DNA of 64,000 bases from the NCBI GenBank assembly GCA_965222115.1, contig CBDCTJ010000007.1:1408001-1472000 (forward strand), given 5' to 3'. The position numbers were made by a program, and so were the translations under genes. Source of the DNA: Planctomycetota bacterium. Lineage in GTDB: Bacteria > Planctomycetota > PLA2 > JAEUHO01. The notes beneath the pieces were generated by a model. It had not been told where the DNA came from, did not search any database, and saw only the letters and a list, made by a program, of their open reading frames with translations. Every line of letters begins with the position of its first letter. The first letter of the stretch is position 1. This document shows positions 1 through 14,661 of the stretch, piece after piece.

Positions 1-1389
1 AAGGGAAGTGGTGCTGTGGTCTCAGTGCTTGTCTTCCCCGTGCGGCGCGAAGGCACGGCCAAGGCGTTGCTCCGGCAAGCGGTGGATACAGCGGTCCGCG
101 GGCGTACGCGCAGCGGCTTTGGCATGCTCGACCAAAAATCGTTTCAGATCCTCGGGCGCGATGGAAGCGACGCACGCATTGAGATTGCGTTGGCGAAAGA
201 GAAGGCGCTCGGTCACGCGCGACTTCTACGCATTGCCGATGCGCAATGGGCATTTGCGTGGGGCTATGCGCCCGAGAAGGCACCTGCCGATGTGGCCGGT
301 CTCATCAAGCGTGTGGTGACGAGTCTACAAACCACCGATCCAGCGCTGTTCACACTGCGATTCGACGAGCGTCCCACGTTTTCTCGCGAAGTCGTGACGG
401 TCAAGGGCGAGGAGGCGATTCGCCGCGAACACATCATTGCCCTGCAACTGCTCTTAGAGGCCTCACGTGGAGAGCGCTATCCGGTAGCCGTGCGTCCCTT
501 GTTGCGCAAGGCGCTGGTGGATGACGCTCGACGATCGAAGTCGAAATGGCGTGATGGGTTTCGAGAAGCACTTCGTTCGGTGCGAAAGGCGGAGCATCAA
601 CCGCTTGACGTACGCCGTAAGCTCTTTACCGAATGGGGTACGGCAATCTTCGCTGGTTATGTTCTTCGCTCCGTGCGACGTGAACTCGCCGGCATGAAAG
701 TCACTACGATCTGGGAGAAGCTAAGTGCACCCGTAGCAACGCATAAAGGTGAGTCGCTCAAAACCTGCGACTACTCCGCCCTGGCAGAAATGGCATCGTT
801 CTTCGCGTCACTAGGACTGGATAAGGGCGTGCCCGTGAGCGACGAGATCCAAGCGAGCCTCAAGAAGTCGCTCGCGAAACGTTGGACGTCCCTCTGCGAT
901 CGCGCGGGATTCCCGGATTCGCCTGCCAAGAACAAGCAGGCCGAACCAAAGAAAGACGATGCCGATAGCCAGTCCAAGGATGCAGACGATCCGAGTAAGA
1001 GAAACGAATCGCCGAAGAAAGACGAATCGCCAGCACTTACCGACGATCAGAAAGCCGCACGCGCCGAAGTCGAACGCCTGCAACACGCCGATCGTCAATG
1101 GGCCACGCTTCGCTACGCCTGGGACCGCGCCGCGCCCGAAGCACGTTTGGCGTTTCGCAAGGCGTTGGTCAAACGTGTGTTTGCGGACAGCGAGGAGAAA
1201 TCGAAGGCAATTGATGCGCTCAAGAACCGAGCTGCTCTCAAGCGTTGGTTTGAGGCGCAGGATGCGGAACAAGCGCCGAGTGCAGATGATATTGTGCGTC
1301 GCATGATGGAAATGACGGGGGAAGAGCGAGAGGGACTGATCGAGATGCTGGGGGTGGGGGACGCGGATGACTTGAGGTTTGGGTGGTAA
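1..1389 (+). CDS. Hypothetical protein, probably 5'-truncated by the window edge
   Basis: Frame 1 is open from base 1 to TAA at 1389 (>=457 aa). It has a charged low-complexity linker (KQAEPKKDDADSQSKDADD); no family recognised. Confidence 0.6.
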   Translation, partial: KGSGAVVSVLVFPVRREGTAKALLRQAVDTAVRGRTRSGFGMLDQKSFQILGRDGSDARIEIALAKEKALGHARLLRIADAQWAFAWGYAPEKAPADVAGLIKRVVTSLQTTDPALFTLRFDERPTFSREVVTVKGEEAIRREHIIALQLLLEASRGERYPVAVRPLLRKALVDDARRSKSKWRDGFREALRSVRKAEHQPLDVRRKLFTEWGTAIFAGYVLRSVRRELAGMKVTTIWEKLSAPVATHKGESLKTCDYSALAEMASFFASLGLDKGVPVSDEIQASLKKSLAKRWTSLCDRAGFPDSPAKNKQAEPKKDDADSQSKDADDPSKRNESPKKDESPALTDDQKAARAEVERLQHADRQWATLRYAWDRAAPEARLAFRKALVKRVFADSEEKSKAIDALKNRAALKRWFEAQDAEQAPSADDIVRRMMEMTGEEREGLIEMLGVGDADDLRFGW

Positions 1390-1612
1390 CGTACGGATTC
1401 GTACCGGGAGCAAATGCGCAACATCACAATTTGTGCCGGGAGCGAATGCGCGGAGAGCCTCACGTTCCCAGCCCTCCCCTCCCAGGGGGAGAGTGGAAGC
1501 AAGTATGCGCGGAATTCTCGTGCTGGAAGGCACAGAGCCTTTCCACCCTCCGTCGCGACCCTGCCACCGCCCCGGTTGGTATCATTCCCCGCCCTGTCTC
1601 GGAGGACCCTTG

Positions 1613-3241
1613 ATGCGCTCAACCCAATCAACGCTGTGGCGAACGGTCACATGCGGCCTCGCACTTGCATTTGCCATTTCATTGGGAGCATGCGGCGGCG
1701 ATTCCGGTGGTGGTGACTCGGCCGACGGCGGGAAGAGGCTGACTGTTGAATTGCGCTACGGAAACAACTCGCGGCCCTACATGCCGTGGCCCGAGGACGT
1801 GGCCAAGCAGTTGGCGGGAGCCATGGAGAGTGCGGGCATTGATGTGAAACTTCGGAAAGAAGAGTGGAACCCCTTCTTGGATCAAGTGAAGAACGGCGAA
1901 CACCAAATGGCGATCCTCGGTTGGTCCGCCGACGTGGCCGATCCCGACAATTTCCTCTATGTCTTGCTCGATAAGGACAATGCTCGTCCCGGCAGCGCCA
2001 ACAATATCAGTTTCTACGACTCCGAAGAAGTCCATCAACTACTCACCAAGGCCCAGCGCATCGGTGACAAGGCTGAGCGCATCAAGCTCTACAAGAAGGC
2101 GCAAGAGATTATCTTCGACGACGTGCCCATGATGCCGTTGGTCTACAACCTGAAACTCCACGCGCATCGCAAAGAAGTGTCACCTCTTGAGGTGCAGCCC
2201 GTTACGCATCCCCTGCTGCGACTGATCAAGACGCCCCAGGACGGAGACCTTGTGTATCTGCGCGGCAGCGATAGCGAGATGCTGGATCCCGCCGATGTTA
2301 CGGATGGCGAAAGTTCCAAAGTCATTGAGCAAATCTATGACACGTTGACGCGATTCAAGTCGGGTACGAGCGACGTGGAGCCTTCGCTTGCCGAGTCCTG
2401 GACGCACAATGATGATCGCACGCAGTGGACGTTTCGCATTCGAGGCGGCGTCAAATTTCATGACGGCACGCCCGTGAACGGCGCAGCGGTCGTCAATGCC
2501 TTCGAGCGTCAACGCGACGAGAAACACCCGCATCATTTCCCCGATGGCACGTGGAGCTACTGGAAAGACAACTTCAAGTTCGTGGACAAGGTTCGCTTGG
2601 GCGACGATCCCATGGACGTTGTGTTCGAGCTCAATCGCGCGGCGCCGCCGTTTTTCCTGTCGTTGCTTGCCATGTTTACCACGTCCATTCCATCGCCGAC
2701 GGCACTCGAGCTCCACGGCAAAGACTTCCGCCGCAACCCGGTGGGATCAGGCCCCTTTCGATTCGTTTCTTGGAAATCGGCCGTTGAGATCAAGCTCGCG
2801 CGCAATGACGACTACTGGGACGGCGCGCCGGCCATTCAGTCTGTTTCATTCCAAGTTTCCCGCGATCCAACCGTGCGCGCTGAACGCTTGGCGTCTCACC
2901 AGCGCGCGGACATCATCGACAATCTCGATCCCCTCACGGTCGAAAAGCTCGCCGCCGACCCGGGCGTAACGATTGAGAAAATCCCCGGCCTCAACGTGTG
3001 CTATGCGGCCATGAACACACAAAAGCCCCCCTTCGACAACAAACTTGTCCGCCAGGCGATCGCGCATCTCGTAGACAAAGACCGCATTGTCAAAATCGTC
3101 TACCGCGGCGAAGGCAAGCCCGCCACGACCCCGCTTCCTCCTACGTTATTTGGTCACAATAGCGACATCGTGGATCGCAAGCGCGATGTGAAGAAGGCGA
3201 AAGAATTGCTGAAGCAGGCGGGGTATGGGGTGGGGGATTAG
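1613..3241 (+). CDS. dppA: Dipeptide/oligopeptide ABC transporter substrate-binding lipoprotein (SBP family 5, DppA-like), circularly permuted
   Basis: GGAGG at 1601-1605 precedes ATG 1613, and the lipobox is LGAC. DppA motifs RPYMP, LGWSADVADPDNFL, LDPA..DGES, LAESW..WTFRIRGGVKFHDGTP, PVGSGPF, PFDNKLVRQAIA and KAKELLKQAGY are all present but in rearranged order. Confidence 0.92.
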   Translation: MRSTQSTLWRTVTCGLALAFAISLGACGGDSGGGDSADGGKRLTVELRYGNNSRPYMPWPEDVAKQLAGAMESAGIDVKLRKEEWNPFLDQVKNGEHQMAILGWSADVADPDNFLYVLLDKDNARPGSANNISFYDSEEVHQLLTKAQRIGDKAERIKLYKKAQEIIFDDVPMMPLVYNLKLHAHRKEVSPLEVQPVTHPLLRLIKTPQDGDLVYLRGSDSEMLDPADVTDGESSKVIEQIYDTLTRFKSGTSDVEPSLAESWTHNDDRTQWTFRIRGGVKFHDGTPVNGAAVVNAFERQRDEKHPHHFPDGTWSYWKDNFKFVDKVRLGDDPMDVVFELNRAAPPFFLSLLAMFTTSIPSPTALELHGKDFRRNPVGSGPFRFVSWKSAVEIKLARNDDYWDGAPAIQSVSFQVSRDPTVRAERLASHQRADIIDNLDPLTVEKLAADPGVTIEKIPGLNVCYAAMNTQKPPFDNKLVRQAIAHLVDKDRIVKIVYRGEGKPATTPLPPTLFGHNSDIVDRKRDVKKAKELLKQAGYGVGD

Positions 3242-3455
3242 AAGGTCTTACAACCTATTGGGCACCCCGTCTTACTGCTTGTTTCTTGGCATTGGAATTG
3301 GCGTCGTTGGCACGCTACTGCTCACAGATTCGAAGCAGGCTACGGAATTCGACGCAGGTCGCGCGTTCTCGGGTTGAGTCAACGTCTTTGGAGAAGTTTT
3401 CGGCTGGGGGCCGAGATTTCATCCTCGACACAATCGGCGCAACACAATCAGTCAC

Positions 3456-3561
3456 CGGTCCCGAAGGGACATACGCGGATAGCCCAGGGTGCACAACGAG
3501 CGTAGCGAGTTGAAACCCTGGGACAAAACGCAACAACAATCTCAGCGCCCTGTAAGGGCGC
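3456..3561 (+). repeat. REP-like structured repeat, copy 1 (three hairpins)
   Basis: GTCCC-GAA-GGGAC (3458-3470), then GATAGC, a CCCAGGGT...ACCCTGGG stem (3483-3522), and GCGCCCT-GTA-AGGGCGC (3545-3561). Confidence 0.8.
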
Positions 3562-3594
3562 AAGCGTCTCCGCCAACCGATGCAACGTCATGAG

Positions 3595-4047
3595 TCAGTC
3601 CCAAATGTAGCGCTCGTCGTACACAACAAGATTTTGCTCAAACAGTTTCAGCAACTCTTCCTTGTACGTCCATTTGCGGTGGTGTTCTCGTTGGTGCTCA
3701 ATGTAGTCAATGACAGGTTCTTTGTGACTTGGGCTCACCGAGAAGGCGCCGTATCCATTCTGCCATCTAGAGTCGGCGAGTAGCGGTACCGAATCTCGGA
3801 TCCATCGCGTCGATCCAGTCTTGATGTTCTGAATGACCTTTGAAATGGCCTTGGTACGAGGAAGACTCAACATCAAGTGGATATGGTCATCTACGGATCC
3901 TGCAGACAGGAGTACTCCCCCAAGTCTTCGGACGATTCCTCCGATGTAGCTGTGCAGTTCACTCCGCCACGCGTCGCCTAGCAATGGCTTCCGGCCCTTT
4001 GTACTGAAGATTACATGAACCAAGATGTTGGAGAGTGATTGCGACAT
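3595..4047 (-). mobile_element. tnpA: IS200/IS605-family Y1 (HUH) transposase, REP-associated tyrosine transposase (RAYT)-like
   Basis: 150 aa with HVIFSTKGR, the HUH motif DHIHL, WQNGYGAFSVS and the catalytic YIEHQ..HH. No tnpB is adjacent, and the gene is flanked by inverted palindromic repeats. Confidence 0.92.
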
Positions 4048-4210
4048 GCACCTGCCTCAGAGTCGAACCCGTCTTGAATCTCGGCGCTCGACGTCGACGT
4101 TGCTAGATGCCGGCCCCAACACACTCTTCGCACAACTCCGTTGCAGGTAACACGTCGGGACGGATTCTTCATCCACCAGAATGGTTGGGATGCCTCTGCA
4201 AGTCGCACTA

Positions 4211-4302
4211 CCGCCCTTACAGGGCGGCGGATTATTGGGGAACCTCATACCAGGGTTCGGAAGCCTCACCCTTCGCTATCAGCTTCCATGCCTTCGGCAT
4301 GG
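4211..4302 (-). repeat. REP-like structured repeat, copy 2 (inverted relative to copy 1)
   Basis: The reverse complement reads CCATGCC-GAA-GGCATGG..GATAGC..AGGGTG..AACCCTGG..CCGCCCT-GTA-AGGGCGG, the same architecture as copy 1. Confidence 0.8.
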
Positions 4303-4519
4303 CCCTGTCTTCCATATGCCCAAGGACGAGTAACGGGTATTGGCCTAGCCCAACCACCAGGCATCCTTGGAAACGTCTCCGCGCATGTTTCCGCCGTCAA
4401 TACTACGAACGCGCCCTAGGAGCTTCATGATCTGTCCCTGCCACCTCTCTTGATCTGGGCAGAGCCACATCTTGTGTCAAGGCGTATCGTCAACACCTCC
4501 GAGTAACACAACCCTTAGA

Positions 4520-4650
4520 CGGTCCCGAAGGGACATACGTTGATAGCTCGGAGTGCCCGCGAGGAAACAGTGCGGGAGCGCAGCGAACTGAAACCCGGGG
4601 ACCTCGTGAATGAAACACAAACTGACCGCCCAGTATGGTTGGACGGGGCG
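4520..4650 (+). repeat. REP-like structured repeat, copy 3 (diverged)
   Basis: CGGTCCCGAAGGGACATACG is identical to copy 1. It is followed by GATAGC, GAGCGCAGCGA, TGAAACCCGGGGAC and a degenerate CGCCC...GGGCG terminal hairpin. Confidence 0.75.
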
Positions 4651-4770
4651 TGCGCAGGTTGAGATTCTGAATACCAGGGATCGGGCGAGGCGAAGGATTG
4701 AGATTCAGCTTCCGAAAGAGCGGGCAAGCAACAAGCGTATCGGCTAATTCAATATCGAATCAACCGCCCA

Positions 4771-6597
4771 CTACTTTAGGCGTGACAATTGTATGTCCAC
4801 AGCTGTCACTTTGTTCGGAAACACTTGAAACTCGGTGCTCGCTTGTTCGTACCCTGGCATCATGATTGCCAATAGATACTCCCCAGCCGGGCAACTTGTC
4901 AGCCACTCCCTTTGTTTGGGTGGAGTCCTCGTGTTGGATAGTGGAACTTGAATTCTTGCTGGGCCAAACTTCCCTGTGATGTTGTTCTTCAGTAGGGCCA
5001 TGAGCCGGGAACCGTAAATTCGTTGTCCACTGGCATTCTTTACTCGTACGAAGAACCCAGTGGGAGGTGGAAGCCGTACTTGATATTTGAGATTGTTCCC
5101 GGCTTCAATTTTTAGCTCTTCTCTCCTAACACCGTCTCGTACCCAAACTTTCAATTCGCGATCGGGAACACCTTTGAACGACCATTCGTTTCTTGTCTTG
5201 GAGCGCAGGCCGTCCAACAAGAATGAGAAATTGTTCTCCAGCCGAACTTCGAGGCTTAACTCGCTGGGAATCGCGACTTCTTTCGGATAATCATGCTTCA
5301 CGACTATCGAAAGTTCGCGGCGACTGAAAAAACCATGCCACGGAACTCTGACTCTCTCCCATCGAGCATCTTCATTGTGCTTCCATAGGCGCACCGTCGT
5401 GGCGATGGTGCCATACCCTGGGGAACTCACCTCGAGTTTCGCGTTTTGAGGTAAATCCGCCGAGCTGGTCCTAGATCGTCTTACGAATCCGGAGTACCTA
5501 GCTCTCCCAATTGATTGTTCACTTTTGAAGCCGTCTCGGCTTGAGCGCCACACGTCTTTCCAAAGGACGCGTTCCGTAACGAGCTCACATTTTGTTTGAC
5601 CGCCCGCCAACTTCTTCAGGCGCAAGACAGGCATCCCTGCGTCGAGTGGCTTGTTGGAATCCACCTCTTCTAATTCTAAAAAAAAAGCTCGCAATTCGTG
5701 CAGCGTAAACAGCACGTTTGCTCGACCAACTCTTACTACTTTGCTACTTAGAGACACAGTTCCACGTCCGGCATCGCCGCGGCTAGTACCGGCATATCCA
5801 GACGCACAGCAGCATAGTTGCACAGCCGATAGGTTGTTGGAAACTGATATTGAAAAGCTGCCATCGTTAAGGGTTCTCGTACTTCGCATGTTTACAGCAG
5901 CCGGTGCGGAGCCATTTCCTTCGTCGCTCCATGAACCTGAACAGCGAGTAATCAATTCTTGGCTTGCTCCAATGGGCAGGCAGCATACCTGGGCTTTTGC
6001 GATAGGCGCGCCAGAATCATCCACAACTCTGCCCGACACGGTTGCACCTAACGGGTCCATCCCAATCTCGTGGGCACCAGAATCAGAGATGACGCTTAGT
6101 ACCTCGCTTTGCATCTCCTCAATCGCGTCTTCGTACCCAGCCGATCTAACGATTAGTTTCAAGACCTCTCGTGAACTGGGGATTTGGGCGGTCCCCTTTT
6201 CGCCCGATGTTCGACGGAAAACTACATCTTCATTCTTCAGCGCAAGCAAGTTAGATGATCGCCTGAGTCCCCAGATATGCGCGTTGGAGATTGGGAGCTT
6301 CGTTTTTCGGTCAACTACCGAGACCGCGAAAGAAGTCCCTGCTTCGCTCGGCTCAGGCATATCCTCGCTTGCGTCCTGCAACGAATCTACCACGCTCCCC
6401 TCAAGTGTGCTGTTCGACGAAAGTCCTACATCGTCTCCCAAGATCGCCGTGAGGTGACTATATCGGTCGTCGGCCCGCGCTGATCTCGTAGCTGTCGTGT
6501 CTTGGATCAGCGCCAAGTACAGAAAGTAGCCCGCGCAGGCAGCCATGACTCCTACACATATGAGCAGTCGGGGCGACCGCTCAAATAGCGTTCTCAT
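4771..6597 (-). CDS. Membrane-anchored protein with several carboxypeptidase-regulatory-like (Ig/prealbumin-like) beta-sandwich domains
   Basis: ATG at 6597 overlaps the upstream stop (ATGA). There is an N-terminal TM helix, and repeated motifs VSVVDRKTKLPISNAHI, VSGRVVDDSGAPIAKAQV..DGSFSI, VRVKNASGQRI..GEYLLAIMMPGYE. Confidence 0.75.
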   Translation of the reverse strand: MRTLFERSPRLLICVGVMAACAGYFLYLALIQDTTATRSARADDRYSHLTAILGDDVGLSSNSTLEGSVVDSLQDASEDMPEPSEAGTSFAVSVVDRKTKLPISNAHIWGLRRSSNLLALKNEDVVFRRTSGEKGTAQIPSSREVLKLIVRSAGYEDAIEEMQSEVLSVISDSGAHEIGMDPLGATVSGRVVDDSGAPIAKAQVCCLPIGASQELITRCSGSWSDEGNGSAPAAVNMRSTRTLNDGSFSISVSNNLSAVQLCCCASGYAGTSRGDAGRGTVSLSSKVVRVGRANVLFTLHELRAFFLELEEVDSNKPLDAGMPVLRLKKLAGGQTKCELVTERVLWKDVWRSSRDGFKSEQSIGRARYSGFVRRSRTSSADLPQNAKLEVSSPGYGTIATTVRLWKHNEDARWERVRVPWHGFFSRRELSIVVKHDYPKEVAIPSELSLEVRLENNFSFLLDGLRSKTRNEWSFKGVPDRELKVWVRDGVRREELKIEAGNNLKYQVRLPPPTGFFVRVKNASGQRIYGSRLMALLKNNITGKFGPARIQVPLSNTRTPPKQREWLTSCPAGEYLLAIMMPGYEQASTEFQVFPNKVTAVDIQLSRLK

Positions 6598-7154
6598 TGA
6601 CACGTGCAGCCGGAATTTGAAACACCAGTCCAAATGGGGGGGTCTAGTGGCATCGGCGGGGTCCACACGATGCCGACGTCCTCGCAAGTCAAGGAGGATC
6701 CGATGCACTCGCCCTCACAGCCCTTCCAAAGCGTGTTCCCACTCTGAGGGTCACTGTATCGAACTGAATCGCACAGCCAGGGTCCGTTCCCGCCGACTTG
6801 GTCGGGATAGTGCCAACCAAAGTGAGTCCCGCTAATGAATATGGGGCAGGTACACGTCGCCCGAGTCACCACCGTGCCCGCTAGCCCTGAGGGATGTCCG
6901 GCTGGTACCGTGTATCCTGGGAAGTCCTGAAGTTGACAATCCGGAACGGACCCTCCCGGGCAGGGTCCATCGCAGTCTATGACCTGAAGAAAGTCAAAGA
7001 AAATTGGCGTCCCTCCGATAGTCAACCAGAAGCCTTCGTAGTGCAGCGTCTTGCCGCGGCACTGGCCAGATTGCGCGGACGCTATATTAAACCCACCGAG
7101 CGCAATCGAACATATCGCGACCAATAAGGGAGCAATTCCTATCCAAAACCTCAT
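6594..7154 (-). CDS. Secreted cysteine-rich protein with two tandem 6-Cys (cystine-knot-like) modules
   Basis: AGGAGGA RBS at 7162-7168, a signal peptide with an ASA|Q cleavage site, and 12 Cys in the mature part arranged as 2 x C-CxGxC-C-CTC. Confidence 0.85.
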   Translation of the reverse strand: MRFWIGIAPLLVAICSIALGGFNIASAQSGQCRGKTLHYEGFWLTIGGTPIFFDFLQVIDCDGPCPGGSVPDCQLQDFPGYTVPAGHPSGLAGTVVTRATCTCPIFISGTHFGWHYPDQVGGNGPWLCDSVRYSDPQSGNTLWKGCEGECIGSSLTCEDVGIVWTPPMPLDPPIWTGVSNSGCTCQ

Positions 7155-7175
7155 TCGTGTATCCTCCTGCTAGAT

Positions 7176-7535
7176 TTATGCCCTAGACTGACTAGACGCA
7201 CGCCAAATTTCGAGACTCGTGATAACTACTAGGCCGCTCACTACCATCGCTATCCCATCTGACATCTTAGCCGCCCCAAGGCAGCCACATTGACCGACAG
7301 GTCGCGGGTGCAGGAGTCGTGCGAAGGCTGCGCCAGCGTATGCGAAAGCCAGCACAAAGGCAGTGGGCCTTGCAGTAATCGGTACGGCAATTCCGACGGC
7401 GCACAACAGCTCAAGTAAGGCGACTTCCGTGTTTGGTCCCTGGCGATCGGGAGATGATCCGTCCCCTGAGAGCTTTTCATAGACTGCCCACACTAAGAAC
7501 AGGACTAAGGACCAACGCAGGGCGTGCCAGTACAT
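7176..7535 (-). CDS. MauE/DoxX-family redox-associated membrane protein
   Basis: GAGGAG RBS precedes ATG 7535. The protein has ~4 hydrophobic segments, an ELL..G motif and the MauE-type CGCLG motif. Confidence 0.72.
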   Translation of the reverse strand: MYWHALRWSLVLFLVWAVYEKLSGDGSSPDRQGPNTEVALLELLCAVGIAVPITARPTAFVLAFAYAGAAFARLLHPRPVGQCGCLGAAKMSDGIAMVVSGLVVITSLEIWRASSQSRA

Positions 7536-7795
7536 TTGAGACTCCTCACTCCTCAACCCTATACGAGCCTTTGGGACGAAGCGCCGAAAAGCTGAGAGAA
7601 ATCCACACGGATCTAAATTTATGTTTTGAACCCGCTCCATAGGCCGATGTGACTAGGCAAGATCACTTGAGATATCTAGCACTGAGCCTGGACATAACAC
7701 TACATCCGTGAATCTAGGCCCTTGCCACTCACCGCGGAGTCCACATTGGCGCAAAAGGTCGCGCTGCTTAGGTTGAGGCGCCTACGTTCTTGTGC

Positions 7796-8191
7796 TCAAT
7801 TCAAAATCGAATCATCCGCCCACTCCGGCGTCCACACGATTTCGCACGGTTGCAGCGTGTCAAACTCGTCCCACGAGAGATTGAACGTGAAGATCCAGTC
7901 GGCGACATCCAGGCGAATGTCGAGATCGAGCACGAACGAGTCTAACTTGCGATACGTGGACGTGCGGGCGCGCCGGAGTTTGCGAATCAGCTTGCGCATA
8001 TCGGGGTCTTCGCCTGGGACCGCAGCCGTTCCGAGTTTGCCGTTGCCGCAATTCCAAATGAACTCGGCGACTTGGAGATTGGTCTCCTTGTCCCACTTGA
8101 GGAAGCCGGGTTCAAAGGCAATGAGCGTGAATTGCACGACTGCATTGGCCTCCTTGAGAACAACGTCCTCGGGCTTGATGAACTTCTTCAT
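7796..8191 (-). CDS. Hypothetical protein (131 aa, soluble, acidic C-terminus)
   Basis: Composition is protein-like from MKKFIKPEDVV, and a purine-rich AGAAGGGG lies upstream. The longer ORF-track start would overlap the next gene. Confidence 0.65.
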   Translation of the reverse strand: MKKFIKPEDVVLKEANAVVQFTLIAFEPGFLKWDKETNLQVAEFIWNCGNGKLGTAAVPGEDPDMRKLIRKLRRARTSTYRKLDSFVLDLDIRLDVADWIFTFNLSWDEFDTLQPCEIVWTPEWADDSILN

Positions 8192-8261
8192 ACCCCTTCT
8201 ACGCACGAGTGCGCGAAAGGTAACATATCGCCACAAAGCCCGGGCGCATCTCCGAAGACGG

Positions 8262-10706
8262 CTACTTGGCCACCCCCGGCACAAGTCCACCGAAAACCGC
8301 GCTCGGCACCCAATGCGTGGCTTCGTCGTAGGCGCGCATGGCCTTCGTACTGGGAGGCAACAGTTCAAATTTGATCCAGCGCCGCATGCCGCGGAGGAGG
8401 TCATAGCATGATTTATTGAGCGCCGCATTGCTGTCGAGTTGCGTAATGATGAGGTCGTAAATGCCATCAATGCCTCGCAACCAATGCGGCCGGCTCGTTG
8501 CGCGAGGTTCGAATGGGGCCAAACGTGCCATGATCGATCCGTTTCCTGAAGAGAGTAGCTGCGACACATCGTTGCGAGCATCAGATTGCGTCCGAGCGAG
8601 GCCTGCCGTCGCGAACCAATACCACAGGCCCTCTCGCCGCTGTGCGCGCGATTGCTCGAGATACGTCGTAATGCGCGGATCGTTTACAGCGCCCAGTCGT
8701 GCAAGCCCGGCGTAACTGCGGTCTGCCAACACCATGGCGGCGGAGACAGTATCGCCCGCACGAAAGTGTTTCCATGCCGCGCGCGAGTCCTTTCGCTCCT
8801 GAATGTGGCGCTCACCCTCTTCGGCCTCGAAGGTCGCGTCTGCGTTGTGCCACAAGAACTCAAGCTCATTCGCCCCGGTAGCGCGAACTACAAGCGCTGT
8901 CAATGCGTCGATCGATCTGGCTTCATCATCGTGATAATGGACACCCTTTATTTCAGGGTCGGGGGCGAGCCTACGGAGTTCTGCGTCGATCGTCTTGTTC
9001 TGTACGTACGTAAGTGATCGACGATGTCGAGACTTCCAGTAGACCGAGCCCTCACCGCGAAACGCCTTGAGCATGACATCTTCATGTCCGGTCACGCCCA
9101 GGCGTGCCAATGCCGCAAGAAGCGAGGGCTTGATCCCTGGCTGCGATTCTAAAAGTGTCGTAATGAGTGCAATCGTTGCGTCGCGATCCCGCACTTCAAG
9201 CAGCGATAGCAATCGGAGCCAATGAACTTCATCGCCGCGGCTCTGTTTCAAGTCAGGTAAGCTTGAGAGTCGCTTTGCAAGTCGTTTGGCACGCTCACGC
9301 GAAAGACTCTCGGGATCCGCATTCACGTGCCACTCAGCGAGTTTACGAATGTGCGTCGTCGATTCGGGGTCCATCGTGTTCCACAGCGCGTCGCTCAACA
9401 TTCGTAGATGATTCGGTGTGATGTTTACGCCAAACATGCGGCGCATAAGTTCTCGCATGCCGGGTGTGAACTGCACAGACGCACGCGATCGCCGATCCAT
9501 CGGCCCATTCAAGATTCGTTTCGCGGCTCGCGTGGCCGATTCCTTGGGCAATGCACGCCACGACATGAGTTCTACAAACGCATTGACGCGAGCCGATCGG
9601 CTGGCATCTTGCTTCTGGTGGCGCTCTAGACGCTCGCGATAGACCTCGGGCTTTCCCAGCAACGCAAGTGCGGTTGCCGCGCACCAACTGCGTTCGTCGC
9701 GGTTCTTTGTCAGCGCCAACACTTGTTCGGCGTCTTCTTTGGAAAGCCTCGCACGATGTCGCATGCTCCATGTGCCGAGGTTCACGATGTGAGAGGCAAA
9801 CGCTCGCGTCGGCGCGTCAAACGCGTCAACGAATGTCCTGAGAAATGGAAGGTCCTTTTCTGCCGGTTGATAACGCATGAGCGCGAGTTGAATCCACGAC
9901 TTTGGCGCAGACACACTCAATGGCTTGTTCTTTGGATCGCCGATATCGAATCCCCGTTTGCGGTCATTCAACGAACGAAAGAGCTCCAGGATCCCCTCCG
10001 GGAGGCCACCGTCGCTGGGCACTTGGGTTCGCGGCGAGACCGAGGCGAGTGTGGGCGGCTTCGTGTTGGCACGTTCCGCACGCAAGCGCTCCAATCCGTA
10101 TAGCAGTCCCACGAGAATCGCATCTTGATGTTTGAACTCGGAGTCGAACTCGCAAACGTCAATGAATGCGTCGAGCAACTGTTCAAACATAGGTGTGGGG
10201 CTTGACGCCAATAGCGGGAGAAGTCCGGCAAGCTGGCGTGGCGTGAGGCAGCTTCGTACTCGCTTGTAGTCGATTCGTTCGCGCTGTTTTTCCGTGGCGG
10301 TAGCGGCTAGCTTAAGGTGTGAAGGAATGTCTTCGGACCGCAACGTGCCATTGGACTTGTCTATGGCCCACCAAGGCGCACGGGAGATAGCCTCCAGCGA
10401 ACCACTGAGCAGTTTCCGCTTGCGCGCCATTCCCTCGGTGTCGAGATTCGGGAAGTCCAGTCCCCGCGCCGCTTGTCTCGCTAGTTTGAGATCCTCGCCC
10501 TCGAAGGCGGCGCGCAGCACGTTTCGCTTGTGGCTTGCGTAAGTCTCTCGGCTACGCCACCACTGGCGAACTTCTTTGTGTTTGGCATGCGCTTCGTCGA
10601 GTAGCGCGCGAAACGTGTCGAGTTCACCTTTGGCGCTGGCCGTGTGAGGCGGCGCCAACAACAGGAGGACAGAAATTAGACCCATTCGCGCAAGGGAGAT
10701 ACGCAT
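8262..10706 (-). CDS. Large exported alpha-helical (HEAT/ARM-like) hypothetical protein
   Basis: >800-aa ORF with a signal peptide (..LLLLAPPHTASA|K) and HEAT-like segments such as CAATALALLG and LLAALARLG. The start is uncertain. Confidence 0.65.
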   Translation of the reverse strand: MRISLARMGLISVLLLLAPPHTASAKGELDTFRALLDEAHAKHKEVRQWWRSRETYASHKRNVLRAAFEGEDLKLARQAARGLDFPNLDTEGMARKRKLLSGSLEAISRAPWWAIDKSNGTLRSEDIPSHLKLAATATEKQRERIDYKRVRSCLTPRQLAGLLPLLASSPTPMFEQLLDAFIDVCEFDSEFKHQDAILVGLLYGLERLRAERANTKPPTLASVSPRTQVPSDGGLPEGILELFRSLNDRKRGFDIGDPKNKPLSVSAPKSWIQLALMRYQPAEKDLPFLRTFVDAFDAPTRAFASHIVNLGTWSMRHRARLSKEDAEQVLALTKNRDERSWCAATALALLGKPEVYRERLERHQKQDASRSARVNAFVELMSWRALPKESATRAAKRILNGPMDRRSRASVQFTPGMRELMRRMFGVNITPNHLRMLSDALWNTMDPESTTHIRKLAEWHVNADPESLSRERAKRLAKRLSSLPDLKQSRGDEVHWLRLLSLLEVRDRDATIALITTLLESQPGIKPSLLAALARLGVTGHEDVMLKAFRGEGSVYWKSRHRRSLTYVQNKTIDAELRRLAPDPEIKGVHYHDDEARSIDALTALVVRATGANELEFLWHNADATFEAEEGERHIQERKDSRAAWKHFRAGDTVSAAMVLADRSYAGLARLGAVNDPRITTYLEQSRAQRREGLWYWFATAGLARTQSDARNDVSQLLSSGNGSIMARLAPFEPRATSRPHWLRGIDGIYDLIITQLDSNAALNKSCYDLLRGMRRWIKFELLPPSTKAMRAYDEATHWVPSAVFGGLVPGVAK

Positions 10707-10795
10707 CAGCAAGCTCCGCAATTCAATTGGCCAACGGCGTAGCATACTCGCCCAAGGTGGTGGGAATAAACGCGGCGCGGTATGGTCGCGTCGCG

Positions 10796-11815
10796 ATGTT
10801 GCTCTACGTGCTCCGCCGTCTGGTACTGACGATTCCCCTGCTGCTCGGGGTGTCGTTTCTCGTTTTCGTGGTGGTCACGAGCATTCCCGGTGACCCGTGC
10901 CTGCGGAAGTTGGGCGCCAAGACCAGTCCCGAGGCTTTGGCTGGATGCCGAACGGCGTTGAAGTTGGATCGTCCCTTCCCGGAACGCTACGCCCACTTCG
11001 TTACGAATGCGGCTCAGCTCGACTTTGGCGAAGACCTCGTCACGGGCGAAGACGTAGGACCGGTCATCATGGAGCGCTTGGCGCCCACGGTTGAGTTGAC
11101 GCTCGTGGCGTTGTTTCTTGCCTTCATACTCGGCACCTGGATTGGCACGCGCTCGGCGCTTCGACCGGGCACATGGTTTGATGCATTTGGTCAAGTCGTG
11201 AGCTTGGCGGGCGTTTCAATCCCCGTGTTTTGGTTGGGCCTCATGTTGTCGGCGTGGCTCGGTTCGCGTCTCGGGTGGTTGCCATTCAGTGGTTGGCACG
11301 CCGATCAAATCGGACCCGACGTCAACTATGCGACGGGCTTCTATATGACTGAGTCGCTGTTCCGACTCGAATTGGGCTCGTTCTTTCGTGCGCTCAAACA
11401 CATCGCGCTGCCCGCAATGACGCTGGCGACGATTCCGCTTGCAACCATTACGCGCATGACGCGTTCGTCGGTGCTCGAAGAAGTGGGTCAAGACTATGTA
11501 ACGACAGCGCGCTCCAAGGGACTAAACGAACGGGTGGTGATTGGGCGACACGTTCGGCGCAACGCGTTAATTCCCGTGGTTACCATCACCGGGCTTCAAC
11601 TTGGGTCGCTTCTTTCGGGCGCGGTTCTTACGGAGACCATTTTCAGTTGGCCCGGACTCGGGACACACATGGTGGAAGCGGCCGACGCGCGAAACTATCC
11701 CGTGCTCATTGGCTGCATGATGCTGTTTGTTGTGATTTTCATTCTGGTAAACTTGCTCGTGGACGTGCTCTATCACTGGATCGATCCCCGTATGCGCGCG
11801 GCGAGTGGCGTCTAA
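10796..11815 (+). CDS. dppB: Peptide ABC transporter permease (DppB/OppB family)
   Basis: YVLRRL N-terminus, IPGDP, LDFG, GVSIPVFWLG, EAA loop DYVTTARSKGL..RHVRRNALIP, GAVLTETIFSWPGLG, DPR C-terminus. Confidence 0.95.
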   Translation: MLLYVLRRLVLTIPLLLGVSFLVFVVVTSIPGDPCLRKLGAKTSPEALAGCRTALKLDRPFPERYAHFVTNAAQLDFGEDLVTGEDVGPVIMERLAPTVELTLVALFLAFILGTWIGTRSALRPGTWFDAFGQVVSLAGVSIPVFWLGLMLSAWLGSRLGWLPFSGWHADQIGPDVNYATGFYMTESLFRLELGSFFRALKHIALPAMTLATIPLATITRMTRSSVLEEVGQDYVTTARSKGLNERVVIGRHVRRNALIPVVTITGLQLGSLLSGAVLTETIFSWPGLGTHMVEAADARNYPVLIGCMMLFVVIFILVNLLVDVLYHWIDPRMRAASGV

Positions 11816-12701
11816 GGTGGTGGGCGAGGTTCCTACGGGCCGAATTGCACAGTTGTGGCATCGATTCCGTTTGGGCATACGCGCACTTTGCAAGGATCGC
11901 GGTGCGCTCGTCGGTCTCGTGTTGATCGGGCTTGTATTGTTGATGGCCGCTACCGCCGACTTTGCCACCTGGAACCCGAGTCAACTCGACTACGACATCG
12001 ACTTCGCACCCGCTCCGCCTTCCGGAACGCACTTGCTCGGTACCGACGCCGCGGGCTTTGATGTGTGGTCACGACTCTTGCATGGCTCCCGCCTTTCGCT
12101 GCTAACGGGCGTGATGGCGATCGTGCTCGCGCTTTCCATCGGTGTTCCCATGGGTGCGATCAGTGGTTATGCCGGCGGGTGGACCGATAGCATTTTGATG
12201 CGCGCCGTCGACGTCATGTTGGCGTTTCCAAGCGTGGTATTGGCCGTTGGCATCGCCGCGGTCTTGGACAAGCGTGCGATGTCCACATTGATCATATCCG
12301 TCGGTATTGTAAACATTCCGACCATCGCCAGGCAGGTTCGCGCATCGGTATTGCAGGCCAAGAGCCACGAGTATGTGACGGCCGCGAAGGCCATGGGCAT
12401 GTCGCCGCTTCGCATTCTTCGACGCCACGTTTTGCCCAACTGTTTGGCGCCCATCATTGTCTTGAGCACGCTTGGCGTTGGGAGTGCGATTTTGACGGCG
12501 GCGGGATTGAGTTTTCTCGGTCTCGGTCCCGATGCGCGCGTGGCCGAATGGGGCGTCATGCTCACCGACGGCAAACGCTTCATCTCACGACCCGAACAAT
12601 GGGTAATCATTCCGCCGGGCGTTGCCATTGCCATCACGGTTCTCGGGTTCAATCTGGTGGGGGACGGCCTACGACGAGCGTTGGATCCGCGCTCGCGATG
12701 A
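11805..12701 (+). CDS. dppC: Peptide ABC transporter permease (DppC/OppC family)
   Basis: HLLGTD..G.DVWSRLLHGSRLSL, EYVTAAKAMG, HVLPN, LSFLGLG, FNLVGDGLRRALDPR. Confidence 0.95.
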   Translation: MASKVVGEVPTGRIAQLWHRFRLGIRALCKDRGALVGLVLIGLVLLMAATADFATWNPSQLDYDIDFAPAPPSGTHLLGTDAAGFDVWSRLLHGSRLSLLTGVMAIVLALSIGVPMGAISGYAGGWTDSILMRAVDVMLAFPSVVLAVGIAAVLDKRAMSTLIISVGIVNIPTIARQVRASVLQAKSHEYVTAAKAMGMSPLRILRRHVLPNCLAPIIVLSTLGVGSAILTAAGLSFLGLGPDARVAEWGVMLTDGKRFISRPEQWVIIPPGVAIAITVLGFNLVGDGLRRALDPRSR

Positions 12702-12806
12702 GCACGATCGCAATATGACGGTGGCATGACGGAGCAGCGTTCTGCTAGGGGGTTGCGACCCGGCGACGAACGTACGGCGTAGCCCGTGGCTTACGCGGAG
12801 AGACTC

Positions 12807-13427
12807 GTGAAGATGATGCAGGAAATATCACGGACCAACAAGTGGCGCGCGCCTTTGCTCGCGATGCTCTTGATGATGTCGTGCGTGGCGTGTCAAACGG
12901 CAGACAGTTTCAAAGACGTGGAAAAGGAGCCGGGTCAGCGTTCCGACGGGTTTCCAGCACCGAACCGCGGTGAGGTGTGGGATGCGGCCGTGAGTGTCTT
13001 GCGCACGCAAGGCTATCGGCCCGATCTTTCGGCCTCGTCGAAGGGCGAGGGCGTCGTGCGCAGTGAGTGGTTGCACTCCATGGCGCCGTTCTCACGGTCG
13101 GGTTGGAGGGAGCGCGCTATTGTGCGCATCGTCCCGGCGGGCGAGCGCGACGGCTACTACCGTCTTCAGACCACCGTCACGCGACAAACCAACGACAACA
13201 TCAAGAACCCGAGTGATCGTGAAGATGCGGAGTGGACGCAGGCCAAGCGCAACCCCATGTCCGAGAACCTCATCAATCGTCGCATTGAAATGGAGTTCCT
13301 CTCAGGCGACGTGAGCAACAAATACCGCAAACGCCACGGCATGAAGAGCAAGCGCAGCGATCGACTGAGCGACGTCGAAGAAGACGACGACCTCTACGAA
13401 GAACGCAATAGCGACGAAGATCGGTAG
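12807..13427 (+). CDS. Lipoprotein, possibly with a BamC/helix-grip-like domain
   Basis: Lipobox (SCVAC) and a VWDAAVSVL..GY....GVVRSEW pattern. The start is uncertain (12786, 12807 or 12813). Confidence 0.55.
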   Translation: MKMMQEISRTNKWRAPLLAMLLMMSCVACQTADSFKDVEKEPGQRSDGFPAPNRGEVWDAAVSVLRTQGYRPDLSASSKGEGVVRSEWLHSMAPFSRSGWRERAIVRIVPAGERDGYYRLQTTVTRQTNDNIKNPSDREDAEWTQAKRNPMSENLINRRIEMEFLSGDVSNKYRKRHGMKSKRSDRLSDVEEDDDLYEERNSDEDR

Positions 13428-13437
13428 CAGTCCTTTG

Positions 13438-14661
13438 CTACCGTGCCGTGTCTGATTCGAGACTGGCGATTACGATTTGTTTTCCGTTGTGCCCGCGAGT
13501 AAACACAAGCGTTGCAGCGCGTGACCCTGACGATGTGTGGCGCTTCTGTAACACATCGGCGCGATCATGAATGCCTTGTTTACGTATCGTGAGGCGGCCA
13601 ACGTCGTGATCGCGGAGCCATTTGCGAATGGCCTTAGGTTGGTGCGGAAGCACGGCGTCGATGCGAAGCCAATGACCCGGCAGTTCGTTGATGGCTTGCT
13701 CGCCTACGAGGTAGCTCGTTTCTCGATGAATGGCGTGAAGGCTGTGAGTAGCCGCTACGTGGCCGACGAGTCCTGCGCGAACTACTGAAATGTCAGGATC
13801 AAGGAGATAGGCGCCAACGTCGGTAGGTCCAGGCATCGGGCGCGGCGTTGTCACTCCTTCCACAAACTTGCCCGAAGGAAGCGTCGTAGCGCGGAGCGGT
13901 GCATGACGTTTCCAATCCCCGATGTACACCCGGCGTTCCCTGGCACGACCGTGTAGTGAAATCCATTCGTTTTGCCTTGCCGACTTCATCGCGCCACACG
14001 CCTGCTCGCTCGGTTGTTCGATGATCGCAAGCTTGAGCATCGACCGTTCGGCGTGTGCAAGCAGCGCGTCCCAAGTTTCGGGGGCAGGCGCGTAGTTTGC
14101 TTTGCGTCGATTGTGATCACCTTCCGCGCGTCGATCCGGATCGATGTATACGTTGTCGCCATACGGTGCGTCGAGGAGACAATCCTGATGACGCACATCG
14201 ATGCGCTCGCTTAAGCCCCAAACAGAAACGTTGTGCCGAAGAATGGACGCGAGGTGCCGGTTCATCTCATAGGCAATGACGCGGTGTCCGCACTTCGCCG
14301 CGGCCCACGCATCAATGCCAAGGCCTGCACAGAGATCGTGAATTGGAGTATCCGAATCGGGCCATTGCTCCGCACGATGCGTTGCGACGTCCCATGCGGT
14401 GGCTTGCTCCAACGCCGTGCGATCAAAGAGCATGTTGTCATTTGGTGTGCACTTCCGCTCGGCTCGCTGCATGAGTTCGTCCTGCTCAACTAGCCACGAC
14501 GTCGCCTCGGCCGACGTTTTCTGCCGCAGCGCCTCCACCCGCCGATGGGGCGGATCGTCACGAAGCGAGCGCGCCAACGCCAGGAGTGCTTGCCCTTCGG
14601 CGCTCGCCAAAAAGTCGATTTTGAGATCTGTGGCGCTCACAAGTGCCGTCCCGTGCCTCAC
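13438..14661 (-). CDS. Class I SAM-dependent methyltransferase with C-terminal THUMP-like domain
   Basis: ALEQAT, SAM motif HDLCAGLGID, YIDPDRR, YLLDPD..VVRAGLV, and a C-terminal LR..DVGRLTIRKQG. Confidence 0.85.
   Translation of the reverse strand: MRHGTALVSATDLKIDFLASAEGQALLALARSLRDDPPHRRVEALRQKTSAEATSWLVEQDELMQRAERKCTPNDNMLFDRTALEQATAWDVATHRAEQWPDSDTPIHDLCAGLGIDAWAAAKCGHRVIAYEMNRHLASILRHNVSVWGLSERIDVRHQDCLLDAPYGDNVYIDPDRRAEGDHNRRKANYAPAPETWDALLAHAERSMLKLAIIEQPSEQACGAMKSARQNEWISLHGRARERRVYIGDWKRHAPLRATTLPSGKFVEGVTTPRPMPGPTDVGAYLLDPDISVVRAGLVGHVAATHSLHAIHRETSYLVGEQAINELPGHWLRIDAVLPHQPKAIRKWLRDHDVGRLTIRKQGIHDRADVLQKRHTSSGSRAATLVFTRGHNGKQIVIASLESDTAR

Follow-up and report, generated by a model that had tools for sequence, protein, structure and literature searches.

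A conserved, circularly permuted DppA-type substrate-binding lipoprotein in a family of Planctomycetota

Near its start, a stretch of 64,000 nucleotides from contig CBDCTJ010000007.1 of a Planctomycetota bacterium (the whole stretch is called the window here) encodes a substrate-binding protein (SBP) of the DppA type. A preliminary description proposed that in this protein the C-terminal segment of canonical DppA comes directly after the lipobox and precedes the segment that normally forms the mature N-terminus. The locus raises the question of whether the chain is really permuted, how such an order could have come about and whether a protein built in this way could still serve its permease.

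The translation of the gene (Table 1) is free of stops. The longest open reading frame in a mechanical list begins at TTG 1379, but ATG 1613 was taken as the start because the relatives begin there, with a short basic N-terminus followed by a hydrophobic stretch and a lipobox. The sequence pattern, a signal peptide ending in a lipobox whose cysteine is shared by all 60 aligned members, marks the product as a putative bacterial lipoprotein. The tether behind the cysteine differs in length and sequence between relatives. A scan of window positions 1300-3700 gave no sigma-70 promoter site, and the two terminator-like sites found in it are at chance level.

Table 1. Features discussed in the text (window positions, except for the second cut variant, whose genes are placed in loci L027 and L028)
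Feature	Position	Strand	Details
Upstream neighbour, no family assigned	16..1389	+	Syntenic in 8 of 14 loci (all 8 of the query's cut type)
Circularly permuted SBP_bac_5 (DppA-type) lipoprotein gene	1613..3241	+	542 aa + stop
Predicted signal peptide and lipobox	1613..1693	+	Pattern L-G-A-C, residues 24-27; Cys27 = predicted lipidated residue
Gly/Asp/Ser-rich tether, residues 28-40	1694..1732	+	pLDDT <50 at residues 26-34
Residues 41-208, C-terminal segment of canonical DppA	1733..2236	+	E. coli mature ~343-507
Joint IKTPQDGD, residues 205-212	2225..2248	+	pLDDT 85-94; alignments
Residues 211-541, canonical mature 1-343 (N-lobe and first part of C-lobe)	2243..3235	+	VIA-align
Insertion of ~7.5 kb between SBP gene and dppB, only in this genome	3242..10789		
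IS200-like Y1 transposase (RAYT-like) gene	3595..4047	-	PF01797, 84 bits
dppB-type permease gene	10790..11815	+	BPD_transp_1, BPD_transp_1_N; beside SBP gene in relatives
dppC-type permease gene	11805..12701	+	OppC_N, BPD_transp_1
Second cut variant genes	L027 (G008) 9150-10670; L028 (G020) 9228-10706		dppB-dppC next

SBP_bac_5 (PF00496) was the only significant Pfam family of the protein, which it matched in two stretches with 300.2 bits against a cut-off of 32.4. When the protein was compared with PDB chains by phmmer, every close relative gave two swapped stretches, with E-values far beyond chance. In H. pylori DppA (6ofq_A), residues 211-540 of the query matched chain residues 31-371 (7.8e-57) and residues 69-190 matched 393-514 (2.2e-27); in E. 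coli DppA (8z1y_F, precursor numbering), residues 209-539 matched 27-369 and residues 52-197 matched 381-524, which are the two swapped matches that the preliminary description had led us to expect. An HMM of canonical order, built from 42 canonical relatives and 533 columns long, placed residues 42-205 on columns 366-529 and residues 208-539 on columns 37-364. In VIA-align, residues 211-541 of the structural model aligned with residues 1-343 of 1dpp_A (Z 28.6, rmsd 2.3 Å, 328 aligned residues). Given in E. coli mature numbering, the chain therefore runs from about 343 to 507, through some two linker residues, and then from 1 to 343. At the joint, the last canonical C-terminal residues are followed by about two linker residues and by the counterpart of mature residue 1 (G211 of the window protein corresponds to K1 of E. 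coli DppA), the length of the joint being put at 2-5 residues. The junction had been predicted at nucleotides 2230-2245, inside the interval found here, and the protein ends as described, with ...KAKELLKQAGYGVGD. The two segments are complementary: the C-terminal end corresponds to E. coli mature residue 343 and the N-terminal segment starts at about 343/344. Since the new ends match to within a residue or two, no part of the canonical chain is missing or duplicated.

The AlphaFold2 model that the preliminary description had called for, computed with a 60-member alignment, has a mean pLDDT of 92.1 and a pTM of 0.86; the joint is modelled with confidence, and only the tether falls below 50 (Table 1). 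None of the best 1000 solved chains retrieved by Foldseek aligned colinearly with the whole model, and all 50 of the Foldseek/VIA-align rows listed begin at model residue 204-212. Both programs are sequential aligners and cover only residues ~205-542 of the model, so that for residues 41-208 the predicted packing is supported by the confidence of the model and by homology in sequence. Judged from sequence and model together, all segments of the bilobed three-domain fold are present. As the order of the segments is rotated, we file the protein as an SBP_bac_5 homologue with variant topology, not as a canonical member of the family.

Residues R54 and D107, which lie in the relocated segment and are unchanged in all 60 members, align with R383 and D436 of E. 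coli DppA. According to passages of PMC12136057, this Arg/Asp pair of DppA holds the dipeptide by its carboxyl and its amino end. The nearest solved relatives are, by their titles, binders of peptides or glutathione. Judging from the two residues, a dipeptide or another short peptide-like compound is the most likely ligand, and the protein would still close on such a ligand and hand it over to DppBC. The new N-terminus lies within the segment that holds the counterparts of R383 and D436, which by the domain limits of the E. coli protein belongs to domain III, with the canonical N-terminus in domain I. The predicted membrane tether sits on the C-lobe rather than on the N-lobe, in line with the opposite-lobe lipid anchor suggested earlier; that this shift changes docking on DppBC, as was also suggested, may be the case.

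The permuted order recurs widely among relatives. It is found in ~70 metagenome protein clusters, and among the best 120 of 3782 homologues (E≤0.001) 75 were permuted and 45 canonical; the source labels of some of the permuted ones name Planctomycetota. The family of the organism comprises 29 genomes in 16 genera, and 21 of them carry a permuted gene, 19 with the order of the query (in two of these the gene is interrupted by a contig end) and two with a second cut variant. Seven genomes have a canonical gene, one genome (89% complete) gave no match, and both orders together were found in none of the 29 at E≤1e-30. A query of 201 residues centred on the joint gave a joint-spanning match in 21 of the 40 genomes of the order, all belonging to this family, and in none of the 11 genomes of the sister family. 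Matches to two proteins of the sister family (G026 and G032) extended weakly into their signal peptides, an extension that was judged spurious on reading the frames.

Logan contigs of three runs (X1, X2 and X3) span window positions 1-4277 without a single difference; X1 and X2 come from one sample and X3 from a second sample of the same study, and the source sample may be among them. The dN/dS ratio (Nei-Gojobori) was 0.10-0.20 in all five pairs of permuted genes compared, including 0.175 for the window gene against its relative in locus L033, indicating that the permuted genes are under purifying selection. Single metagenome contigs can be chimeric, and two adjacent partial genes can be called as one, but we consider it extremely unlikely that the permuted order is an artefact of either kind, given that 21 of the 29 genomes of the family, as well as dozens of independent metagenome clusters, share this order and joint, that the frame is open in every permuted relative, that contigs of three runs and two samples (with the caveat on the source sample just given) cross the joint unchanged, and that dN/dS is low. 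The preliminary claim of a complete, in-frame permutant with homologues sharing its junction is upheld by this distribution in genomes and metagenome clusters and by the contigs crossing the joint, together with the exact complementarity of the ends and the confident model.

To place the gene in its context, we compared 14 related loci, eight of the query's cut type, two of the second cut type, two canonical ones from the same family and two canonical ones from the sister family. The SBP gene was directly upstream of dppB-dppC homologues in all 14; in most of them, Lon and the ORFs at window positions 12786-13427 and 13438-14661 also had homologues further downstream. In the window, dppB and dppC lie on the same strand as the SBP gene, 7.5 kb downstream. 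This linkage and the anchoring Arg/Asp pair point to a DppA-type protein. No ATPase gene was found in the SBP-dppB-dppC locus of the window or of the relatives (L022-L035). The candidates in this genome are oligo_HPY-type ATPase genes on contig C1 near 359.9-361.1 kb, where they adjoin another SBP_bac_5 gene, and at C7:2,644,348. In the periplasmic N-terminal region of DppB, which forms the scoop in E. coli, the majority consensus of 14 aligned sequences has two cysteines, neither of them invariant, and no E-R pair corresponding to the one that touches DppA in E. coli can be made out.

The insertion that separates the SBP gene from dppB carries four minus-strand ORFs in addition to the IS200-like gene and REP-like repeats. 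The transposase gene is flanked by REP-like repeats at 3434-3492 and 4498-4556 (76%) and by inverted repeats at 3546-3560 and 4212-4226. The minus-strand ORFs include those for a protein with a CarboxypepD_reg domain (4771-6708) and for an 827-aa protein of no family (8262-10745). GC content falls to 0.49-0.53 around 4750-6000. Contigs of the sequencing runs break at ~4248-4285, and one contig of run X2 covers 4256-13000. With oppositely oriented genes in between, and in a genome that has further SBP_bac_5 genes besides a complete opp/dpp-like set on contig C1, the SBP of this genome might have been uncoupled from DppBC and have become an orphan that acts as a sensor, as a scavenger or as the partner of another permease. 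We regard this as quite unlikely, because the gene is intact and keeps every residue that is invariant in the family, its dN/dS against L033 is as low as stated above, dppB and dppC are themselves intact and on the same strand, and SBP genes often work from separate transcripts. Delivery to DppBC is the preferred reading for the window protein as well, although its distance from dppBC and the lack of ATPase genes in the locus speak against it.

The history of the permuted form was followed in a tree for which three segments of the protein were aligned separately and concatenated; 117 of 134 rows were kept and 17 with less than 80% segment coverage were dropped. All 75 permuted rows group together in a single clade (SH-aLRT 100), and its sister (99) consists of canonical genes of the same family. 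The genomes that carry the permuted gene likewise form one clade in the trees of DppB, DppC and Lon (SH-aLRT 99, 98 and 87), with the canonical genera of the family as their sister and the sister family as outgroup. From these trees and from the synteny in 14 of 14 loci it follows that the permuted gene replaced the canonical one in place and was then inherited vertically. This replacement took place a single time, within one family of an order of Planctomycetota. No acceleration of DppB specific to the permuted clade was seen in the comparison of stems (DppB 0.34, DppC 0.29, Lon 0.14), in which the longest stem is that of the canonical sister.

The second cut variant is represented by nine sequences, including the genes of the two genomes listed in Table 1. 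After its lipobox, the chain begins about eight residues before a P-G-L-N motif that aligns with E. coli mature residue ~260, the position at which, by the domain limits of the E. coli protein, the chain crosses from domain I to domain III. It then passes the canonical C-terminal end and the same joint, and stops where the middle of the first variant continues. Such a cut would leave only one of the two inter-lobe crossings covalently continuous. The variant shares its joint with the window gene and is located inside the permuted clade, where it falls in two places on the tree, monophyly not being rejected (AU p=0.163). It may have arisen once or twice, either from the first variant or from a longer ancestor of both, and a comparison of the linkers did not decide between these orders of events. 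The AlphaFold model of the second variant, computed from only seven sequences, is poor (pLDDT 57.5, pTM 0.42).

Permuted members of SBP_bac_5 were also found outside this family. We searched 1.84 billion representatives with the joint region and checked the best 150 of 21,586 hits with the canonical HMM. Among these 150, non-colinear proteins were cut near column 365 (P0126, P0136, P0152, P0174 and P0192), near column 290 (P0266), near column 195 (P0162) or near column 150 (P0159, P0242, P0261, P0158, P0214, P0256 and two fragments). In a tree based on HMM coordinates (175 rows; 46 dropped for a fill below 75%, and the query family thinned to 19 of 66), nine changes between canonical and non-canonical order were counted, and at least seven when only branches with SH-aLRT ≥95 were trusted; the joint sequences differ from lineage to lineage. 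A lipobox-like cysteine is present in 11 of 14 outside representatives, but the canonical relatives are mostly lipoproteins too, so that these counts show no association between permutation and lipobox. In P0158, P0214 and P0256, which have the domain II cut (~150), a Peripla_BP_6 or SBP_bac_3 domain is joined to the permuted SBP_bac_5.

Replication is good for three of the outside lineages. Of the 79 loci fetched for the P0192 type, 15 held a permuted ORF, followed by dppB-dppC in every case; apart from one, these 15 are labelled as Anaerolineae or Chloroflexota MAGs. The permutants (L036-L049 and L095) form a monophyletic group (99) and share 77-82% identity with the closest canonical relatives. 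They are cut at the same loop as the window gene (HMM columns ~367/368), and their two ends overlap by ~20 HMM columns, which leaves a short duplicated strand at the C-terminal end. The Anaerolineae permutants are an independent, younger lineage. One of them, L042, is labelled Nitrosomonadaceae, and the canonical relative L099 is labelled Methanosarcinales; both labels may be binning errors. P0266 has five members at 90% identity, one of which is named Candidatus Methanofastidiosia archaeon, and P0159, from the group cut in domain II, also has five. P0126, P0136, P0152, P0162 and P0174 are single sequences on single contigs and may be chimeras. A further protein, P0129, is 1202 aa long and consists of two full SBP_bac_5 copies arranged head-to-tail, 57% identical and each other's nearest kin, with a joint of ~10 residues and a C-terminal extension, encoded on a single contig. 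By analogy, it represents the intermediate type that a duplication route demands, though in another lineage.

These observations bear on how the permutant of the Planctomycetota family arose. At its joint, the canonical last strand is kept to within ~4 HMM columns of its end, and it is followed by the pre-strand motif of canonical precursors (E-P-K-x-G) and then by the first strand. Such a joint is the expected remnant of an in-frame tandem fusion after loss of the signal peptide and tether of the second copy. Tandem duplication, fusion and loss is the most likely origin, judged from the joint: the SBP gene would have been duplicated in tandem, and the end of copy 1 would have been fused in frame to the mature start of copy 2. 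Loss of the front of copy 1, from behind its lipobox onward, and of the back of copy 2 would have completed the change. No tandem or partly redundant form from this clade was present among the best 150 of 21,586 hits of the joint search, so that we infer the route from the joint and from the other lineages. None of 424 candidates was a longer, fused relative in a search limited to residues 130-330, which is weak evidence. The missing intermediate, and the fact that the ends of the query's cut type carry no leftover overlap, would also fit a real permutant made by gene fission and re-fusion of the swapped halves, or by some other rearrangement. Such an origin is improbable in our view, since no split SBP gene was found in 40 genomes of the order, the joint retains the canonical C-terminal end and an N-terminal start from the pre-strand motif as a read-through fusion would, and both a full tandem fusion and terminal overlap are present in other lineages. 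Taken together, we assign a probability of about 85% to the reading that the window gene encodes a functional permuted Dpp-type SBP, tethered by its C-lobe and delivering to DppBC, which arose by duplication, replaced the canonical gene once and has been inherited as a vertical orthologue.

The known proteins closest to it, E. coli DppA (1DPP, 1DPE and 8Z1Y/8Z1Z), 6OFQ and GbpA/HbpA (3M8U), share the homologous cluster C fold, with 31-38% identity over the aligned parts. Like E. coli DppA, the window protein keeps both dipeptide-anchoring residues and the dppB-dppC partners; unlike it, its chain is rotated (~343-507, then 1-343), it is lipid-anchored, and the anchor is predicted to be on the C-lobe. 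Engineered circular permutants of periplasmic binding proteins serve in biosensors and show that new termini are tolerated by SBP folds; those permutants are laboratory constructs, whereas the window protein is natural, conserved and under purifying selection. Our searches of full texts outside subscription journals turned up no permuted protein of the OppA/DppA type (cluster C), and within the same scope the only natural permuted ABC binding protein that we found was TpMglB-2 (Tp0684) of Treponema pallidum, for which passages of PMC4990184 propose a 'cluster Bc'. According to these passages, TpMglB-2 resembles the window protein in being a natural permutant and a tethered lipoprotein with homologues of the same topology, and it retains ligand binding and closure; it differs in being a type I, cluster B sugar binder in which the permutation concerns only strands of the N-lobe and the hinge has gained a fourth crossing (PMC4990184). 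Its origin is obscure, as the same passages have it, because the permuted part is poorly similar to canonical MglB (PMC4990184). In the window protein, by contrast, both parts are clearly homologous to DppA, canonical positional orthologues exist in the family and the joint is readable. The window protein appears to have no homology to MglB, and it is best placed as an analogue of TpMglB-2 by topology change, outside 'cluster Bc'. We class the window gene as encoding a conserved, positionally orthologous permuted cluster C lipoprotein, one of several independent permutations in SBP_bac_5.

Permutants of this kind form a new topology class among the peptide/nickel binding proteins (cluster C), whose members annotation pipelines label as ordinary proteins. 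In the family studied here, a rare natural permutation can be read stepwise: sister genera carry the canonical or the permuted gene at one and the same locus, both old ends can still be recognised in the joint, a second cut variant is known, and other lineages show the proposed intermediate stages. The permutants also mark positions at which the chain accepts new termini, a help in designing sensors. A broader, tentative reading, which we hold to be possible but rather doubtful, is that permutation is a recurrent, selected mode in tethered cluster C SBPs. The loop at ~343 of DppA would then be a hot spot that was hit several times independently, and the chain could also be viably cut in domain II, close to the border between II and I, or at the lobe hinge. 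If this were true, a tether on the C-lobe or a cut in a hinge strand would alter opening, closing and docking on the permease, and nature would have supplied, with these permutants, a series in which SBP mechanics can be dissected and which points to sites for engineering. The permutants also make it possible to test whether delivery to the permease depends on where the lipid tether is placed or on how many covalent hinge strands there are.
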